Assembly: GCA_963816085.1 (NCBI GenBank)
Contig: CAWFIX010000003.1
Span: 487,167-551,166 of the forward strand
Direction: 5' to 3'
From: Candidatus Uhrbacteria bacterium
GTDB taxonomy: Bacteria; Patescibacteriota; Patescibacteriia; 2-12-FULL-60-25
DNA: 64,000 bases
The notes under the pieces were generated by a model. The model saw only the letters and a list, made by a program, of their open reading frames with translations, was not told the DNA's origin and ran no database searches. The position numbers and the translations under genes are program-made. The first letter of the stretch is position 1. The number at the start of each line of letters is the position of its first letter. Of the stretch, positions 4,178-61,505 are shown in pieces.

Positions 4178-4295
4178 CTGGCTCTGGGGTGAACTCACCC
4201 CTAACCCCTCTCTTAAGATCAATAGAGGGGGATCTGACCTGACAAATCCTAGAGCACCCTTTCTCTTGATCTTAAGAGAAAGGGCTGGGGATGGA
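4178..4295. mobile_element. MITE/REP-like composite palindrome (GGGGTGAACTCACCCC family)
   Basis: Hairpins ggggtgaactcacccc, cccctctcttaagatcaatagagggg and ccctttctcttgatcttaagagaaaggg. Related copies at 22150-22320 and 59646-59757. Confidence 0.75.
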
Positions 4296-4306: not shown

Positions 4307-5197
4307 CTAAATCCTCTTCCGGATTCTCAAGATTGCTTTGATGGCTTCGATACCGTCCCTAAAATGGCGGATTTGGCTTTTGCGGTTGGGATAGCGGAAT
4401 TCGAGCCATGGGACGGGGACCTCGGTTATCCTTAACCTATCTTGCCTGGCTTTTGCTAAAAATTCAATATCCAAAAACCAACCGTCCTCCTCGCAAGATT
4501 TAAGCACAGCCAAGCCTTTTTCGTTCATTATTTTTAAACCGCATTGTGCGTCCGCTACTTTAAGATTTAAAAAGAGGTCGGCCATGAAGTTAAAGAGTTT
4601 TGAGCTTAGAGTTCGGAGCCAGTTGCGGTTCGTGGTTTTGGTGATGAGCAAGCGTGAGGCAATGACGATGTCGGCTTTGTCTTCGAGCAGTCGCGCGACC
4701 ATGCCGGGGATGGCATCCGGGTCGGCGGAGAGGTCGGCATCGATGAAACCGAAGAGACTGTCGAACGACGAACTTCGAACCACGAACTTCGATTCGGAGG
4801 GCGGAAATCTCCCAATCAACGCTTTGCGTTGATATCCCTCTTTATTAAAGAGGGTTTCAGAAACCTGATTAGATGCAAAACGGATCGCGGAGCCTTTGCC
4901 GACTTTGGGACAATCTAAATAGACAAATTGGTCCTGGGTCCTGGGTACTGAACCAACCGATTGGTCCTGGGTCCTGGGTACATGGTCCTGGTTACTTTTG
5001 TCGGAGCCAGGACTATGGACGTAGGACCATGTACGAATGATTTCTTCAGTAGTTTGTTTAGTGTTATCGGTTGATCCATTATCAGCTACGATTATCTGCC
5101 ATGGGATAGGTAAATCGGCCAGGGTTTTGGCGAGGCGGTGGAGGGTGTTTGTGATGTAGGGGGCTTCGTTGCGGGAAGGGATGACGAGGTGGAGCAT
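4307..5197 (-). CDS. GT2 glycosyltransferase (polyprenol-phosphate hexosyltransferase-like) carrying two repeat-derived in-frame inserts
   Basis: 'VIPSRNEA', 'IVADNGSTDNT', 'GKGSAIRFA' and DXD 'FIDADLSADP'. Inserts VPRTQDQSVGSVPRTQDQ and ETLFNKEGYQRKALIGRFPPSESKFVVRSSSFDS coincide with DNA repeats. Confidence 0.85.
   Translation of the reverse strand: MLHLVIPSRNEAPYITNTLHRLAKTLADLPIPWQIIVADNGSTDNTKQTTEEIIRTWSYVHSPGSDKSNQDHVPRTQDQSVGSVPRTQDQFVYLDCPKVGKGSAIRFASNQVSETLFNKEGYQRKALIGRFPPSESKFVVRSSSFDSLFGFIDADLSADPDAIPGMVARLLEDKADIVIASRLLITKTTNRNWLRTLSSKLFNFMADLFLNLKVADAQCGLKIMNEKGLAVLKSCEEDGWFLDIEFLAKARQDRLRITEVPVPWLEFRYPNRKSQIRHFRDGIEAIKAILRIRKRI
4761..4796. repeat. Heptad tandem repeat tract (GAACTTC/GAACnAC units) inside the GT2 ORF
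   Basis: tcgaacgacgaacttcgaaccacgaacttcgattcg. Same family as 15428-15460. Confidence 0.8.
4800..4853 (-). mobile_element. Hairpin-module element (two small hairpins) inside the GT2 ORF
   Basis: Reverse strand reads ccctctttaataaagaggg, tatcaacgcaaagcgttga, ttgggagatttccgcc. About 80% identical by eye to 22632-22690. Confidence 0.75.
4928..4992. repeat. Heptad tandem repeat tract (TGGTCCT/GGGTCCT units) inside the GT2 ORF
   Basis: tggtcctgggtcctgggtac ... tggtcctgggtcctgggtacatggtcctgg. Confidence 0.85.
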
Positions 5198-14245: not shown

Positions 14246-16552
14246 TTAGTTACCGGGTTTTATGTATTTATTCATATTGGCAATTAAAGCCGGCAGACTG
14301 TGCTTTGCCTTAATTATATCTCTTAAGTATTCAATATCATAATCTTTCCACTTTTCAGCAAGTATGAAATCCGCCATTTCCTTGGGATCGTCATTTTGGA
14401 TGGATACTGGCAAGCCGATAGCATTTGAGTTGCCTTTTGTGGTAATGGGGTAAATACCGAACAACATTGCCTCTACCATGGTTTTATCAATTGTCTCTGA
14501 GGCCATGTTGACCATCAATCTGTGCTTAGGATAGACCTGTTTAAGCTGGTGCATGGGGACCGGACCCATGAATTTAACACGCGATTCCAGCGATTCTTTT
14601 GCAACCAGCGCCTTAAGTTCTTCCACATATTCTTTCTCAACATCTCTACCGTAAATTGTTAAGTTGTATTTTTCCGGTAAATGTTTTAATGCTAAAATTC
14701 CCAATTCAAGGCGCTTGGATCTGCATAGGCGATGGACGGTTAGTAAATTATATTTTGTTTCATCGTCTGAACCGCGGATCGTTTCTGCCTCTTGCAGCCA
14801 AAAATCCAAATCGATTCCGTGCCCCAAAACAACTTTCTTGGTTCTCCCCTCATATTGTGGGAGACTTTGTTTTGTTGCAGCGAACATTCTCCGGCAAAGC
14901 AACCCCGACAGGAAAACATGTACATGCATGACGTAATGAGTAAACCAAAGATATATCGGGATTCTCCTTAGTGCCCAATACCACCCACCCAAAGTCACAT
15001 ACTCGGTATTCATGTGAACAAAAACTCTGTTGTATTTTAATGAAATTATTATTTTATAAAATTCAAAAATTCTCCGAATTTTGCCGTAACCCTTTTCTTT
15101 GCCCAGGGAATGAACCGGGAAAGAACCATCAAAAGCCCCCTTCTCCAAACAAATGACTTCGACATCGACTCCTTGCCTAATAAACTCTTTTATCCAAAGA
15201 ATGGTAAAAGCTAAATCATCATCATCTTGATTGATCTTTTGCGTTAAAAAAAGCATTTTAACTTTTTCTTCTGAATTTTGTTGATTTATCATAGATTGTT
15301 TTTCTTCATCGAATCGATTCTCGTGAGCACCCTCACTAAACTTCCAAAAATCTTCATCTTCCTTTTTTTTAGCGGATAGCTGATGGCTGATGGCGGATAG
15401 CAGGAAAACCTTCATGCTCGCTTCGCTCGCGAACATCGAACTTCGAACAACGAACAACGATTTTCCCAAAACAGATACCATTGCATTAGCTAGAGCGACT
15501 ACATCGCCGACGGGGACGATGATGCCGTTTTCGCTGTTTTTGACGACTTCCTCGGCACAGCCGACATCTGTCATTATAACAGGCGTGCTGCAGGCAAGCG
15601 ACTCAACGGCAGTCATGCCAAAGCCTTCGCGATCCGAGGTGATTAGTGTGGCGATAGCGTTGCGATAGAGTTCGGCGAGATCGTTTGTCCAGGGGATTAT
15701 TTCCACTCTGCTATGCAAATCAAAATCAGCGATCCATCTTTTAACTTGATCCTCGAGCGGGCCTGCGCCAACGATTTTTAGGTTAACATCAGGGTTTTGC
15801 TTGGCAAAGATGCTGAAGGCGTGGATTGCGAGGTCGATGCGCTTGATGGGGACGAAGCGGCAGACGACTAAAAAGTATTTTGTATTTTGTATCTCGTATC
15901 TCGCTGATCCCTGAGCGTCGTCCGTCACTGTCCACTGATCACTGTTCACTGCCCCCTGTTCACTGTTCACTAAGTTACTCTTTGCAGTTTGCAGTTTGAA
16001 GTTTTCATTTAGCACGACCGGAAAGCGGACGATTCGCTCCCTCGGCACGCCAAGCTTGATAAGTGCTTCTTCAGTTCTTTGGCTGACGACGCGGATTGCA
16101 TCCGCGCGGGTGACGATGAAGCGAGCAAAGAGATAGCGGAATTGGTTGAGCCAGGATTCTTGGCGGTAATAGTTACCGTGGAAGTGATAGCCGTGGTCTT
16201 GGATAGCGAGTGCTGAGTTTAAGAACTTTGACGCTAAATAGGCGACCAAGCCTGTCTCTGTAGGGTCTTGGGATGTGATGACTGCAAATTTTTGTTTGCG
16301 CAATTTCCAAACGATTCTTAGCGCATCGGTAACGTAAAAAAACTTGTTCCACGAGTTGGTGGAGATGACGCGCAAATTCGGCGTTATTCGCTCGTCAAAC
16401 TTTTGCTTGGCAAAGACGATGATCGTGGATTCAAAGCCCGCCTCTTCGAGTTGTTTGGCAATCCTTCCCCTCGCCGGGTGCCCATCTTGAAAAAGGCCTT
16501 TCTCGAGGCCGATTACCAACAATGGTTTGCGCTTTTCATTTTGATCGGGCAT
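14246..16552 (-). CDS. Tandem double GT4 glycosyltransferase (one ORF; could be two genes, second Met at 15256)
   Basis: First GT-B unit has 'SDREGFGMTAVESLACSTPVIMTDVGCAEEVV'. The second starts 'MLFLTQKINQDDDDLAFTILWIKEF'. Heptad-repeat-coded linkers lie at 15371-15460 and 15875-15971. Confidence 0.75.
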   Translation of the reverse strand: MPDQNEKRKPLLVIGLEKGLFQDGHPARGRIAKQLEEAGFESTIIVFAKQKFDERITPNLRVISTNSWNKFFYVTDALRIVWKLRKQKFAVITSQDPTETGLVAYLASKFLNSALAIQDHGYHFHGNYYRQESWLNQFRYLFARFIVTRADAIRVVSQRTEEALIKLGVPRERIVRFPVVLNENFKLQTAKSNLVNSEQGAVNSDQWTVTDDAQGSARYEIQNTKYFLVVCRFVPIKRIDLAIHAFSIFAKQNPDVNLKIVGAGPLEDQVKRWIADFDLHSRVEIIPWTNDLAELYRNAIATLITSDREGFGMTAVESLACSTPVIMTDVGCAEEVVKNSENGIIVPVGDVVALANAMVSVLGKSLFVVRSSMFASEASMKVFLLSAISHQLSAKKKEDEDFWKFSEGAHENRFDEEKQSMINQQNSEEKVKMLFLTQKINQDDDDLAFTILWIKEFIRQGVDVEVICLEKGAFDGSFPVHSLGKEKGYGKIRRIFEFYKIIISLKYNRVFVHMNTEYVTLGGWYWALRRIPIYLWFTHYVMHVHVFLSGLLCRRMFAATKQSLPQYEGRTKKVVLGHGIDLDFWLQEAETIRGSDDETKYNLLTVHRLCRSKRLELGILALKHLPEKYNLTIYGRDVEKEYVEELKALVAKESLESRVKFMGPVPMHQLKQVYPKHRLMVNMASETIDKTMVEAMLFGIYPITTKGNSNAIGLPVSIQNDDPKEMADFILAEKWKDYDIEYLRDIIKAKHSLPALIANMNKYIKPGN
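15371..15460. repeat. Two adjacent heptad tracts (GATAGCn and GAACnTC units) inside the double-GT4 ORF
   Basis: agcggatagctgatggctgatggcggatagc and gaacatcgaacttcgaacaacgaacaacga. Translated as SLFVVRSSMFAS...LLSAISHQLSA. Confidence 0.85.
15875..15971. repeat. Heptad tracts (GTATnTT/GTATCTC and nnCACTG units) inside the double-GT4 ORF
   Basis: gtattttgtattttgtatctcgtatctcg and cgtcactgtccactgatcactgttcactgccccctgttcactgttcact. They lie in the linker between the two Rossmann halves of the first GT. Confidence 0.85.
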
Positions 16553-22320: not shown

Positions 22321-22382
22321 TTGCTTTTTAGCCTTTTTATGCTAAAACTACCATTGTGGATAATTTACCTAAACAAGCGGTA

Positions 22383-23692
22383 ATGCTCATGATTACCAGC
22401 CAAGATTGGGGCGGAGCTCAGCTCTATGTTTTTGAATTGGCCAAGGAACTGAAAGGCGCGAGGTGAGGAGGTTATCGTGGTGGCTGGGAGTAACGGAAAT
22501 CCTCTGTCTCTTCGAGACATCTCCTTTGACAAGGAGACTTTACCAAAGCGCCCCCTCGTCTCCGCCATAGGCGGATCCGCCTATGGCGGAAAAGGGGGAT
22601 ATTCAATGCAAAGCATTGAATCGGGGGATTTGAGCCCTCTTGTCAAAGAGGGACATTTAACGCAAAGCGTTAATTGGAGATATCCGCCGGGCCATGAATT
22701 GGGCCAAAGATGCCGAGAAGAAGGCATCAATTTTATCGAGCTGAAAAATGTGGCTCGTGATATTAATCCAATTGCAAATGTTATTGTCGATGATCGAGCT
22801 CATAAAACTTTTTAGACAACTAAAACCACGGGTCGTGCATCTAAACTCTACGATGATGGGTGTGGTGGGTTCTCTTGCCGCGACTTTGACCAGAGTCCCC
22901 AAGAGGATTTATTGTATTGGAGGTTGGGTTTTTAATGAAGATTTACCAACCTGGAAAAAGAATTTGTATATTTGGATAGAGAGACTTAGCGCAAGATGGA
23001 AAGATGTGATTATTGTTGTGCATCCGGGTGATGAGGAGTTGGCGAAAAAGTTAAAGATAGAACCGCAAAAAAAACTGGTTACCATCCCCAATGGAATTGC
23101 AATCGAAGAATTTGAATCTAAATTACTGAGTCGGAACGAAGCAAGAGAAAAACTTGGCATTGATCCTGAAGCGATAATAATTGGAAATATCGCAAATGCT
23201 TATCCACCTAAGAATCTTTTTTGGTATTTGGAAGTTTGTAAAAAGATCCACGACGCAGATAAGAGAATCTGCTTCGTAATAATTGGCGAGGGGCCGCAAT
23301 TTGCGGATTTAAAGAAAAAAAGAGATGCCTTGGGTGCAGGGAGCTATGTTATGCTGGCCGGGCGTAGGATGGATGCACCAACTTTGTACAAGGCTTTTGA
23401 TTTATTTGTACTCCCCTCTTCTAAAGAAGGTATGAGTATTACATTGCTCGAGGCCATGGCTGCAAAAGTCCCAATCGTTGCCACGGATGTTGGCGCGGCA
23501 AAGTGGATGCTTGGTAGTGGTGGTGTGATAGTCCCATCCGGTAATGCAGATGCGATGCAATCTGCGATCTTGGATTTAGTGTTTAATTCCGAAAAACAAA
23601 AAAACATCTCGCAGATGGCCCACGAGATGCTTTTAAATAATTTTGATTTGCAAAAACTTTTTGATTCTACAATAGAGATTATAAATCAATAG
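22383..23692 (+). pseudogene. GT4 glycosyltransferase split over three frames and carrying a 192-nt hairpin-module insert
   Basis: 'MLMITSQDWGGAQLYVFELAKELKG' (frame 0, TGA at 22464), 'VVAGSNG...EEGINFIELKNVARDINP' (frame 1), 'LIKLFRQLKPRVVHLNS...' to the end (frame 2). Confidence 0.8.
22501..22692 (+). mobile_element. Cluster of five small hairpins (64 codons, stop-free) inserted in the GT4 gene
   Basis: tctcctttgacaaggaga; ccgccataggcggatccgcctatggcgg; attcaatgcaaagcattgaat; ccctcttgtcaaagaggg; ttaacgcaaagcgttaa. Confidence 0.8.
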
Positions 23693-26081: not shown

Positions 26082-26141
26082 ATGAGAAAAAGAGTACCAT
26101 AAGAGTGTAGATATTTGTAGAGATGCATCTTCCGTGGTTTG

Positions 26142-26205
26142 TGTAGGGATAATCCCTTGCGGCGCCCCTCGCAGTCGAATGACGAAGTGGGGTGGTTATC
26201 CGTAC
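26142..26205 (+). mobile_element. REPIN type I (about 64 nt), left flank of RAYT-1
   Basis: tgtagggataatcccttgcggcgcccctcgcagtcgaatgacgaagtggggtggttatccgtac. Reverse complement of 26814-26877. Overlaps the RAYT stop codon. Confidence 0.85.
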
Positions 26206-26783
26206 TTATCACCTCCTTTTAACCATTGGTTTGGGTTATAAATTATATATTCTGCGATATTATCATAATCTTTCTCGTTATCAACGATTCGTTCGTAATA
26301 ATTTTTTTGCCATAATTTACCTGGAAACGGTAAGCATAATTTATTTTTAACCATTTTTATATATTCTCCGGTAGTTCTTGATTTAAAGGCTCCAACTACA
26401 TCTCCAAGCGATGTCGTATTTCTTACGTAGGGATAACCCTTGTGGTTATCCGTACTATTTCTATTGCTTAATATGCACGGGCGATCACAAGGATACGCCC
26501 CTACGACAGGTTGTAGACTTTTGTTACGCAGCTCGATTATCCCATGAATATGATTCGGCATAACAATGAATTCTTGTGGGATGACGATATCAAATTCTTT
26601 TTCGAGATTCTCCCAATTACGATAAAGCATGCACCCCGCCTCATTTAAAAACATGTAATGATTTTTTATTTCACCAAAATAATGCTTAAAATCATTTGTG
26701 CAAATTGTAATGAAATAAAAACCGGATTCTGAATAATCAAAACCTTTTAATCGTTTGGTTTTGCGATAGGGTAGTTTTTCCAT
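26196..26783 (-). CDS. HUH/Y1 transposase-like protein (IS200-like fold, REP-associated RAYT type), copy 1
   Basis: 'GFYFITICT' and HUH 'MPNHIHGII'. Conserved C-terminal region GDVVGAFKSRTTGEYIK, no catalytic Tyr assigned. Start at the Met at 26783. Flanked by inverted REPINs. Confidence 0.85.
   Translation of the reverse strand: MEKLPYRKTKRLKGFDYSESGFYFITICTNDFKHYFGEIKNHYMFLNEAGCMLYRNWENLEKEFDIVIPQEFIVMPNHIHGIIELRNKSLQPVVGAYPCDRPCILSNRNSTDNHKGYPYVRNTTSLGDVVGAFKSRTTGEYIKMVKNKLCLPFPGKLWQKNYYERIVDNEKDYDNIAEYIIYNPNQWLKGGDKYG
26425..26507. repeat. REP-like hairpins embedded in frame inside RAYT-1
   Basis: acgtagggataacccttgtggttatccgtac and gcacgggcgatcacaaggatacgcccctacgac. Translated as VVGAYPCDRPCILSNRNSTDNHKGYPYV. 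Confidence 0.8.
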
Positions 26784-26813
26784 GTTGTAATGATAGCATA
26801 GACAGTGTAGTAA

Positions 26814-26877
26814 GCACGGATAACCACCACACTTCACTCTCCGAGTTGCGAGTGGCACAGCAAGGGTTATCCCTACA
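26814..26877 (-). mobile_element. REPIN type I, right flank of RAYT-1 (inverted)
   Basis: gcacggataaccaccacacttcactctccgagttgcgagtggcacagcaagggttatccctaca. Confidence 0.85.
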
Positions 26878-26896
26878 AAGATACTTGAAAATATAC

Positions 26897-34058: not shown

Positions 34059-34190
34059 CGTAGGGATAAACCCTTGTGGTTATCCGTGCTTTATCACCAG
34101 ATATCCATTTCCGCCTACGACAACAGCGCGGGCGATCACCTCACTTCGTCACTCGACTACGAGGGGCGCCGCAAGGATACGCCCCTACGC
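34059..34190. mobile_element. REP cluster (GGATAAAC hairpin plus inverted REPIN type I)
   Basis: tcgtagggataaacccttgtggttatccgtgc ... gcgggcgatcacctcacttcgtcactcgactacgaggggcgccgcaaggatacgcccctacgc. The reverse complement aligns with 26142-26205. Confidence 0.8.
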
Positions 34191-59645: not shown

Positions 59646-59757
59646 CTCTGGGATGAACTCCATCCCTACCCTTCCTCTTAATTAAGAGGAAGGATGGTTT
59701 AAGAAACTGTAATTCAGCCCCTCTAATGACTTTAAGAGAGGGGGAAGGGGGTGAGTC
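59646..59757. mobile_element. MITE/REP-like composite palindrome (same family as 4178-4295)
   Basis: ctctgggatgaactccatccctacccttcctcttaattaagaggaagg...cccctctaatgactttaagagaggggg...gggggtgagtc. Confidence 0.75.
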
Positions 59758-61417: not shown

Positions 61418-61505
61418 GGACTATCCTCCCAACCTCCTTATTAAGGAGGTGCTTTGGTGTAAGCTGCCTGAAAACAACCCCTTAATAAGGGGCGGGGGGA
61501 TGTGC
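61418..61505. mobile_element. REP-like double hairpin (related to the CCCCTCT...AGAGGGG family)
   Basis: acctccttattaaggaggt and ccccttaataagggg hairpins. Confidence 0.6.

Follow-up and report, generated by a model that had tools for sequence, protein, structure and literature searches.

How a run of small hairpins comes to lie, in an open reading frame, inside a glycosyltransferase gene is the question raised by positions 22498-22692 of a 64-kb stretch of Candidatus Uhrbacteria DNA (contig CAWFIX010000003.1, positions 487,167 to 551,166; hereafter, the window). A preliminary description had placed this hairpin block in a GT4-family gene, had noted its resemblance to a segment of an unrelated GT2-family gene, and had compared both with the Rickettsia palindromic elements (RPEs), which are inserted in frame in coding genes. 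In the interpretation presented here, to which a probability of about 0.75 is given, the block is made up of clustered copies of a small selfish repeat that is dispersed in one Patescibacteria clade. This repeat is RPE-like yet very probably unrelated to RPEs and is regarded as a new family. The window features on which the argument rests are the following.

4307-5197, minus strand: intact gene for a GT2-family glycosyltransferase of 296 aa (Pfam Glycos_transf_2), the second host
4800-4854, minus strand: single canonical unit inside the GT2 gene (covariance model, 68 bits; leave-window-out hidden Markov model (HMM), E = 8e-13)
22384-23692, plus strand: gene for a GT4-family glycosyltransferase, host of the insert (Pfam Glycos_transf_1 and Glyco_trans_4_4 on the reconstructed protein)
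22498-22692, plus strand: insert as a whole, 65 codons of hairpin modules with no stop among them, flanked by '..VVAGSNG' and 'GHELGQRCREEGI..'
22495-22538, minus strand: module M1, assigned by eye as an old, diverged, inverted (antisense) copy of the element
22551-22634, plus strand: unit U1, forward, CCCCC subtype (covariance model, HMM, and inverted repeat I1)
22561-22590, no strand: perfect palindrome of 30 nt inside the loop of hairpin A in U1, two inverted copies of CCGCC-ATA-GGCGG
22635-22692, plus strand: unit U2, canonical, forward (covariance model, 49 bits, E = 7e-12; leave-window-out HMM, E = 3e-10)

The hairpin block and its units

Translation confirmed that the block is stop-free in the frame giving VVAGSNG...EEGINFIEL, in the order ..VVAGSNG / NPLSLRDISFDKET...SPLVKEGHLTQSVNWRYPP / GHELGQRCREEGINFIEL... 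The five hairpins recognized earlier are all present (22520-22537, 22561-22590, 22601-22621, 22635-22652, and 22657-22673), and a sixth perfect hairpin lies at 22505-22519. The single-strand fold of the block reaches -90.8 kcal/mol, compared with -57.0 +/- 4.3 for dinucleotide shuffles (z = -7.8). Perfect hairpins with a stem of at least 7 number 57 in the window and 9-29 in shuffles, and in this census only 22520-22673 and 4815-4854 form dense clusters.

The basic unit, 46-58 nt long, consists of hairpin A, the tetranucleotide ACAT or ATAT, hairpin B, and the tail ATTGGGAGATT(yCGCC). Hairpin A is of the pyrimidine/purine type, with CCCTCTT or CCCCCTT, a loop, and AAGAGGG or AAGGGGG. In L001 (L numbers stand for loci fetched from related assemblies) the parts are CCCTCTT-GTCA-AAGAGGG, ACAT, hairpin B, and the tail ATTGGGAGATTT. 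U2 is laid out as CCCTCTT-GTCA-AAGAGGG, ACAT, hairpin B TTAACGC-AAA-GCGTTAA, and then TTGGAGATATCCGCC, with the peptide SPLVKEGHLTQSVNWRYPP. The GT2 unit reads CCCTCTTT-AAT-AAAGAGGG, ATAT, CAACGC-AAA-GCGTTG, and then ATTGGGAGATTTCCGCC; its peptide, TLFNKEGYQRKALIGRFPP, stands between GKGSAIRFA and FGFIDADL. U1 begins with CCCCCT...AAAGGGGGATAT, followed by hairpin B TCAATGC-AAA-GCATTGA and ATCGGGGGATTTGAG. It contains I1, with arms of 23 nt, and its hairpin-A loop is enlarged by the nested palindrome, a single hairpin of which, CCGCCATAGGCGG, occurs in intergenic DNA downstream of the GT4 gene in L001 (12059) and L016 (4930). U1 was found by the covariance model at 22577-22631 (34.9 bits, E = 8e-8) and by the leave-window-out HMM at 22591-22630 (E = 1.5e-3), so that the covariance model scores on the three window units are 68, 49, and 35 bits.

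M1 comprises the tail CGGAAATCC, the small hairpin TGTCTC-TTC-GAGACA, and the hairpin TCTCCTT-TGAC-AAGGAGA, with GNPLSLRDISFDKET as its in-frame peptide. Its reverse complement has the architecture of the element: the hairpin TCTCCTT-GTCA-AAGGAGA with the element's GTCA loop, the small hairpin, and the tail GATTTCCG (..GGATTTCCG). M1 scores below the detection threshold of the covariance model, and the assignment was made by eye; the module is common to the GT4 inserts of L001, L013, and L016. [quoted passage not shown]

The likeness between the two glycosyltransferase genes, estimated by eye in the preliminary description as about 80% over the last ~58 nt of the block, amounts to 49 of 64 aligned columns (77%) with 4800-4858 on the minus strand. 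The two window copies have a mean column identity of 78%, and BLAST within the window gives E = 4e-8. The HMM built from the copies of other genomes only recovers both, with E = 8e-13 and 3e-10, and over the 64 kb nothing else convincing was found beyond them, the third unit at 22591-22630 scoring 1.5e-3. Both copies are in sense orientation to their hosts and give the peptides first quoted; the reading of hairpin B is shifted by one frame between the GT4 and GT2 hosts, and compensating 1-nt differences are the cause, as had been stated. When the 72-aa insert peptide was compared with 5.8 billion proteins, it matched itself alone; such a search is blind to other in-frame copies because both hairpin B and the frame vary between them. 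Against Rfam 15, the window has no match that reaches the gathering threshold, and 22380-22800 has none even at E <= 1.

A dispersed family in related genomes

The preliminary description had considered that these two copies might be the only ones. The relatives were scanned with the pattern CCCTCTTN{3,4}AAAGAGGGAYATN{12,20}ATTGG, in which hairpin A, ACAT, and ATTGG are fixed (23 bases) and 12-20 nt are free; by our own estimate, a 23-base pattern is expected by chance less than once in ~600 Gb. The exact pattern was found in 19 stretches of 5 species-representative assemblies and in 22 stretches of metagenome sequence, of which most belong to the genomes represented by L001 and L002. In the viral contigs scanned with the same exact pattern no copies were found, and a phage vector is thus not indicated. 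After nhmmer and de-duplication, 77 distinct copies were obtained from the fetched loci of related Patescibacteria assemblies, with at least 10-20 copies per genome in five genomes, which rules out that the two window copies are the only ones. The contig that carries the window is 1.32 Mb long, and the homologues of the window are all labelled Patescibacteria, the more distant ones Uhrbacteria.

The copies occur in genes as well as between them. Open frames of at least 290 aa hold 32 of the 77 (~40%), and the rest are intergenic. Hosts of in-frame copies with Pfam support are GT4, GT2, an Elp3-like protein with radical S-adenosylmethionine (SAM) and GNAT domains (two sites), Wzy_C, which is an O-antigen-ligase-like membrane protein, and DinB/IMS (two sites); a weaker copy in a PolX/PHP-like host was assigned by eye. 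Host frames are 290-726 aa long and belong to at least six unrelated protein families, which, together with the intergenic copies and the frames kept open, supports the RPE-like behaviour first proposed. All three sense frames are translated, KEGH being the commonest, followed by KRDI and QRGT, and within inverted pairs antisense copies are translated too (ISPFDKGA, GNPLSLRDISFDKET). Units also form inverted pairs, in the GT4 loop (window, L001, and L045) and around DUF559 genes, and arrays of 2-5 units. The array period is 54 nt in coding DNA compared with 56-59 nt in intergenic DNA, and a coding period of 54 nt is what selection for frame would give. Some of the intergenic copies are located upstream of genes for 23S rRNA or in the vicinity of a tRNA gene. 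No orientation bias toward neighbouring genes was detected among the intergenic copies (22 and 15 downstream, 15 and 8 upstream), and a transcription-coupled mechanism is therefore not supported by the data.

The conserved parts of the unit and the variable hairpin B

An alignment of 26 distinct copies shows sequence conservation across genomes for hairpin A, for ACAT/ATAT, and for the tail. In almost all copies the free segment between them folds as hairpin B, for which more than 20 stem sequences were recorded, and no pairing had been imposed on this segment by the scan pattern. Among these copies, 97.1% of hairpin-B cells are paired, compared with 81% when the letters of the 3' side are shuffled, the observed value being reached by none of 500 shuffles. 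As many as 40 cells are changed on both sides of a pair (11.5 expected), and controls in slid registers are only 18-37% paired. Since MAFFT placed a 1-nt difference in hairpin-A loop length at the 5' end, the invariant hairpin A was excluded from the pair counts. Copies without hairpin B were found in L045 and at one Elp3 site (L021); as the element does without it there, hairpin B is an optional as well as variable part.

The host genes

The GT4 gene was described earlier as one host gene. Its family and the position of the insert stand; a single open frame does not, as three frames are needed to read the gene through, one from 22384 for the N-terminus, another at 22477-22815 for the middle, and a third at 22748-23692 for the C-terminal part. 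DNA alignment with the intact orthologues in L001 and L016 reveals two +1 insertions, near 22452 and 22785, and the source annotation holds fragments only, P0001 (112 aa) and P0123 (279 aa). It is worth noticing that the two sites bracket the insert, ~45 nt upstream and ~90 nt downstream of it, and that ~10 kb of adjoining coding sequence is frame-intact; it is conceivable that strong hairpins favour indels, or sequencing errors, close to them. The long neighbouring genes (869, 795, 1272, and 417 aa) are intact and colinear with L001, and a general assembly error is therefore unlikely. To judge from the reading frames, GT4 is probably a pseudogene in this genome. The possibility of a dead pseudogene, raised in the preliminary description, thus applies to this genome because of the two frameshifts, but not to the orthologues: intact GT4 proteins of 515, 520, and 432 aa have a like insert at the same loop, and for this reason the in-frame claim is left standing.

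Homologues without an insert exist for both hosts, as alignment showed. In insert-free GT4 homologues (~375-380 aa), AGG(K) is joined directly to GELGxRC. The closest orthologues have inserts of widely differing length at exactly this AGGK/GELGxRC loop, in open frames and with total lengths up to 515-520 aa. In L001 the GT4 insert consists of units in tandem, with array periods of 54 and 108 nt, and in the more distant L045 the loop contains a clean inverted pair of a simpler element composed of a hairpin plus tail.

For GT2, baseline homologues are ~235 aa long, and closer orthologues are longer through additional segments, variable in nature, in two loops and at the C-terminal end. The segment 'LFNKEGYQRKALIGRFPP' is found at the same site in P0004, P0005, and P0006, is replaced by other sequence in P0003 and P0009, and is absent from the short (~235-aa) homologues; the unit itself lies at the same site in the orthologue of L002/L003. 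The preliminary description had envisaged that the segment might be conserved as protein in relatives free of the repeat; it is kept only in those orthologues that also keep the hairpin DNA. In the AlphaFold model of GT2, the core has a predicted local distance difference test (pLDDT) score above 90, and the insert regions 62-85 and 120-144 are predicted as coil with a score below 50. The GT2 copy would thus sit in low-confidence coil between confidently predicted core elements. A PDB sequence search with GT2 gave no match at 1e-5.

The GT2 gene also contains other repeats. Imperfect heptamer tandem repeats on the minus strand occupy 4761-4792 and 4930-4991 (TCGAACT x4.6 and GGTCCTG x3-4) and are translated as SKFVVRSSSF and VPRTQDQ..VPRTQDQ. 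Similar 7-nt palindromic tracts (SKFEIRNSN, SYVVHRT, KYEVRGTN) occur in the orthologues at the same loops and in C-terminal tails. A change in the number of heptamer units would shift the GT2 frame, and phase variation is conceivable. In L002 and L003 (1-900 and 987-1346), taken from independent JGI and ENA assemblies, the contig starts no more than 25 bases from the GT2 orthologue; repeats may break assemblies near this gene. A gene of the 23S_rRNA_IVP family follows the GT2 gene in L002/L003.

Differences between orthologues

Orthologous host genes differ in the presence and number of units. In DinB of L011, a clean extra unit of 54 nt directly follows the unit common to L036, L006, and L034. 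The extra unit is of the CCCCCTT subtype and has a different hairpin B, and since subtype and hairpin B differ from those of its neighbour, it is not a local duplication. Wzy of L023 contains two units and that of L009, L017, and L029 one, and the GT4 arrays hold 1-5 units depending on the genome, with unit number and order differing. Because the orthologues of DinB, Wzy, and GT4 differ in adjoining units, we infer that new units may arise preferentially beside old ones. Clean empty sites were also sought at GT2 and at DinB site 1, and the loops of the 'empty' orthologues there proved to be filled by other repeat types, so that the clean comparisons come only from DinB site 2 and Wzy.

DUF559 genes between inverted copies

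A small nuclease gene is found between inverted copies of the element at two independent sites. At one orthologous site, beside a glycosyltransferase gene, the arrangement element (minus), DUF559 gene, element (plus) is present in L015, L019, L026, and L027. At the second, the same inverted arrangement lies in frame inside Elp3 in L018 and L043, while the exact site holds a solo unit in L042 and a hairpin plus tail alone in L021. The insertion (L018 4296-4828, L043 258-786) comprises a DUF559 domain of ~120 aa and two flanking units in frame, between the radical-SAM C-terminal domain and the GNAT domain. The resulting open frame has 726 aa compared with 555 aa in L021, with no intein or intron apparent. 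In L045, which was retrieved through its GT4 protein and not through the element, a DUF559 gene immediately follows the GT4 gene with the inverted hairpin pair in its loop.

The DUF559 genes belong to Pfam PF04480 and resemble the YcjD-like model PRK09767, the closest solved structure being 3HRL, an 'endonuclease-like protein'. The DUF559 gene of L001 is more divergent (36% identity) and is embedded in arrays of a second double-hairpin family (14490-14830 and 15230-15560) with a period of 55 nt, built of GTCCTCCTTTTTAAGGAGGAC, CGATTTTG, a variable stem, and AAATCAGGTGGTTTT. A 152-nt higher-order repeat also surrounds this gene, and the variable stem of the second family shows compensatory variants, GGC/GCC and GACC/GGTC. 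Judged from these arrangements, the small DUF559 (Vsr-like, PD-(D/E)xK) endonuclease is the best candidate for a mobilizing enzyme, on circumstantial grounds.

Proposed mechanism and the evidence against it

It is proposed that the unit behaves as selfish DNA of which copies are made at new places, or were until recently, and that new units tend to land beside existing ones, leading to arrays. Inside genes, the survivors would be those with a frame-preserving total length in tolerant surface loops, and they would be translated as short flexible peptides rich in Pro, Gly, and Lys. In the window, the GT4 insert may have started as an inverted pair that was then extended, with a palindrome nested in one unit, and the host has since been frameshifted twice; the GT2 insert is a single forward unit.

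A more far-reaching version, including the mechanism, is that the double-hairpin repeat is one half of a hitherto unrecognized kind of bacterial mobile system and the DUF559 endonuclease the other. This is offered tentatively, and we consider it doubtful as a whole. It assumes that the nuclease gene lies between inverted cognate repeats, as the gene of a REP-associated tyrosine transposase (RAYT) lies between REPs, and that the repeat would be attacked by the enzyme when folded or in cruciform shape. With every cycle of cleavage and repair, hairpin B would be rebuilt and units would be added next to old ones. Frame-neutral units might then continually remodel protein surface loops, including those of cell-envelope glycosyltransferases, and the nuclease domain itself could be carried in frame into a host protein, as in Elp3.

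Several observations weigh against selfish mobility and against the role of DUF559. The two ends of the unit are not inverted repeats of each other, and neither a target-site duplication nor a clear target motif was found in the flanks of the copies. A single unit has no terminal inverted repeats, and the inverted pair, with outer ends GGAAATCC...GGATTTCC, has flanks without evident duplication. Hairpin B may be an entirely different one in orthologues at the same site (Elp3 site 1), and a simple scheme of inserting once and decaying is therefore insufficient. No transposition event was observed, mobility being derived from distribution and orthologue differences, and the 64 kb of the source genome covered here contain just 3 units. 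Concerning the enzyme, there is no DUF559 gene within the 64-kb window, and the two copies on either side of a DUF559 gene have different hairpins B and in some cases belong to different subtypes, whereas the ends of a classic transposon match. The loci were fetched for containing the element, so that ascertainment accounts for part of the proximity of DUF559, though not for the inverted geometry of the flanking copies. Moreover, PD-(D/E)xK nucleases of the DUF559 type are not known to act as transposases.

Alternative explanations

The strong maintenance of hairpin-B pairing with compensatory changes leads to a first alternative, in which the unit is a structural nucleic-acid motif kept for a cellular job (an mRNA-stabilizing or terminator-like hairpin, or a protein-binding site, roles that have been suggested for REP/BIME sequences) and its spread is secondary to function. 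An apparent double compensatory change in Wzy, CCGGC/GCCGG in L009, L017, and L029 against CCAGC/GCTGG in L023, fits this explanation, as do the conservation of hairpin A and tail between genomes and the many intergenic copies just past gene ends. However, with ~40% of the copies in coding sequence, at unrelated positions of unrelated genes, shared regulation is hard to picture; the intergenic copies have no orientation preference relative to their neighbours, no Rfam family is matched, and the copy number of arrays varies freely among close relatives. A structural job is compatible with mobility, and the two are not exclusive. As a substitute for selfish spread, it is considered unlikely.

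A second alternative is suggested by the window itself, where a RAYT-like tyrosine transposase frame (26196-26858, minus strand, in the region 26135-26878) lies 3.5 kb from the GT4 insert: the hairpins would be REPs mobilized by its product. The frame matches Pfam Y1_Tnp with 27 bits (cut-off 23) and the NCBIfam model REP_Tyr_transpos with 58.7 bits, below the cut-off of 80; RAYTs are known to use small hairpin repeats as substrates, and inverted pairs are one form in which REPs are found (PMC3337134). Nevertheless, the gene has its own, different inverted flanking repeats of ~65 nt, starting with GTAGGGATAAyCC, with further copies at 34060, 48092, and 54. The 13-mer has 8 matches in the window against 0.84 expected, and the GTAG-tagged repeats are a second, separate REP-like repeat system. 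The focal element carries neither a GTAG nor a CGTC tag, and L001 has, in the slot of the RAYT gene, a DUF559 gene with hairpin arrays instead, although the focal element is still abundant there. Mobilization by this transposase is distinctly improbable, and the RAYT was set aside as the mobilizer on account of its own GTAG-tagged repeats.

Two further explanations dispense with mobile DNA. Palindromes made locally by replication slippage or template switching, their likeness being convergent low complexity, would agree with the other palindromic or heptamer tracts in the same loops (TCGAACT and GGTCCTG in GT2; GACGT- and TTCGAA-type tracts in DinB and GT2 orthologues), and template switching can perfect imperfect hairpins, which helps explain the near-perfect hairpin B; but a specific sequence of 35-45 nt (hairpin A, ACAT, ATTGGGAGATT) recurs in unrelated genes and intergenic DNA, the leave-window-out HMM recovers the window copies with E = 1e-10 to 1e-13, and the unit added in L011 is of another subtype than its neighbour, so that this origin is scarcely credible. 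A protein module, i.e., a linker or surface peptide (PLVKEGH...GLGD) selected as amino acids and moved by recombination, is hardly tenable either: genic copies are mostly in one frame (..KEGH/Y...GLGD) and the peptide is conserved between GT2 orthologues, but genuine genes use all three sense frames (KEGH, KRDI, QRGT) and antisense ISPFDKGA and GNPLSLRDISFDKET, more than half of the copies are outside long open frames, the hairpin-B region is unconserved as peptide and covaries as nucleic acid, AlphaFold predicts coil with pLDDT below 50, and the 72-aa insert peptide has no relatives among the 5.8 billion proteins.

Integron attC sites, considered because a variable palindrome stands between conserved flanks, were set aside, as these flanks (hairpin A, ACAT ... 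ATTGGGAGATT) do not form a pair of boxes complementary to each other and the loci are ordinary chromosomal genes (glycosyltransferase, Elp3-like, DinB, Wzy) with no cassette array apparent, no integrase search having been made. CRISPR was considered for this layout and the 54-nt periodicity and rejected, since the 'spacers' of the arrays repeat; no search for cas genes was made. DGR and retron elements were set aside as well, no search for reverse-transcriptase genes having been made.

Comparison with known systems

The selfish repeat outlined above can be compared with several known systems. The RPEs are small palindromic repeats found in frame in many unrelated Rickettsia genes and in intergenic DNA, as described by Ogata et al. 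(2000) and summarized in a review (PMC10969869). Both families reside in reduced genomes and place a translated extra peptide without wrecking the fold, and the full GT4 insert, with an inverted pair of ~100-190 nt, is of RPE-like size. However, the focal unit has 46-58 nt, two local hairpins, and non-complementary ends, whereas an RPE has ~100-150 bp and one long stem, a form approached only by the composite inverted pair in GT4. The focal family, in a different host phylum, also forms 54-nt tandem arrays with a hypervariable covarying second hairpin, uses all three frames and antisense, and has a candidate nuclease, while the review (PMC10969869) names no partner enzyme of RPEs. Homology to RPEs is very unlikely, by phylum, unit length, and architecture.

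REP/REPIN-RAYT systems share with the focal family short hairpin repeats occurring singly, in inverted doublets, and in clusters (PMC3337134, PMC3116915, PMC3733652). A single-copy nuclease or transposase gene between inverted cognate repeats is also common to both, and different nuclease lineages appear to be paired with different repeat families. In contrast, the 26-copy alignment shows no GTAG or CGTC tag at the palindrome end, ~40% of the focal copies are intragenic whereas REPs are extragenic by definition, and what the flanked gene encodes is a PD-(D/E)xK endonuclease of the DUF559 type instead of a Y1 (HuH) transposase.

A MITE and its parent insertion sequence (IS; PMC10969869) are mirrored by the short-spacer inverted pair of GT4 and the pair enclosing DUF559; here, unlike in MITEs, the arms are not identical, no target-site duplication was found, and the enclosed gene is not a recognized transposase, the likeness to MITEs being ambiguous. 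The geometry around DUF559 parallels both the REP-RAYT and the MITE/IS relations, which is a circumstantial analogy. Mitochondrial double-hairpin elements of fungi and algae also have two adjacent small hairpins, dispersed or clustered, and are regarded as selfish DNA in a compact genome (PMC5910586, PMC7218506, and PMC2670323); they differ from the focal element in being organellar and unrelated in sequence.

A further parallel concerns nuclease genes. Free-standing homing endonuclease genes include those of the Vsr-like or PD-(D/E)xK type, such as the EDxHD family with I-Bth0305I. As with these, the small nuclease gene is present at some orthologous sites only, and even inside an open frame that it does not break. 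The differences are that the focal gene is bracketed by a repeated hairpin element and that no intron or intein is involved. By analogy, the repeat itself would likely be the target or landing pad of the putative DUF559 nuclease.

In the full-text literature searched, no such elements were described in Patescibacteria or the Candidate Phyla Radiation (CPR), and no paper was found that ties DUF559 genes to hairpin repeats.

Significance for reduced genomes and their annotation

To our knowledge, the RPEs of Rickettsia are essentially the sole textbook example of selfish palindromic DNA that has colonized protein genes in frame. The repeat described here would be a second clear case, in a very different, equally reduced lineage (Patescibacteria/CPR), which suggests a recurrent outcome in small, intergenic-poor genomes and not an oddity of Rickettsia. 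The inserts lengthen and diversify CPR proteins (GT2 from 232 to 330 aa, GT4 from 365 to about 515 aa), yield spurious 'hypothetical' open reading frames, and can mislead homology and structure pipelines. The link to DUF559 provides a testable hypothesis for the mover of the repeat and suggests what a 'domain of unknown function' that is very widespread might do. Hairpin B, hypervariable yet always paired, is an unusual signature, for which selection, correction of one arm by the other, or regeneration at each event are possible origins.

Additional observations

Isolated pyrimidine/purine hairpins resembling hairpin A were noticed at or near gene ends in the window, at 4257-4284, 59670-59693, and 61432-61450, with the arms CCCTTTCTCTT..AAGAGAAAGGG, CCTTCCTCTT..AAGAGGAAGG, and ACCTCCTT..AAGGAGGT. 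These could be terminators, or raw material or relics of the element.

Copies of the element in a larger repeated context lie a few kb upstream of 23S rRNA in L022 (1716-3065, 23S from 5751) and likewise in L012 (5058-5109, 23S from 7481), with no 16S rRNA detected between the copies and the 23S gene. The element is also present in the assembly CAZXFK01 (L004, L009, L011, L013, L015, and L018), which is titled 'uncultured Gammaproteobacteria'. The same assembly carries close orthologues of the Patescibacteria GT4, Elp3, DinB, and Wzy, and its label is probably wrong.

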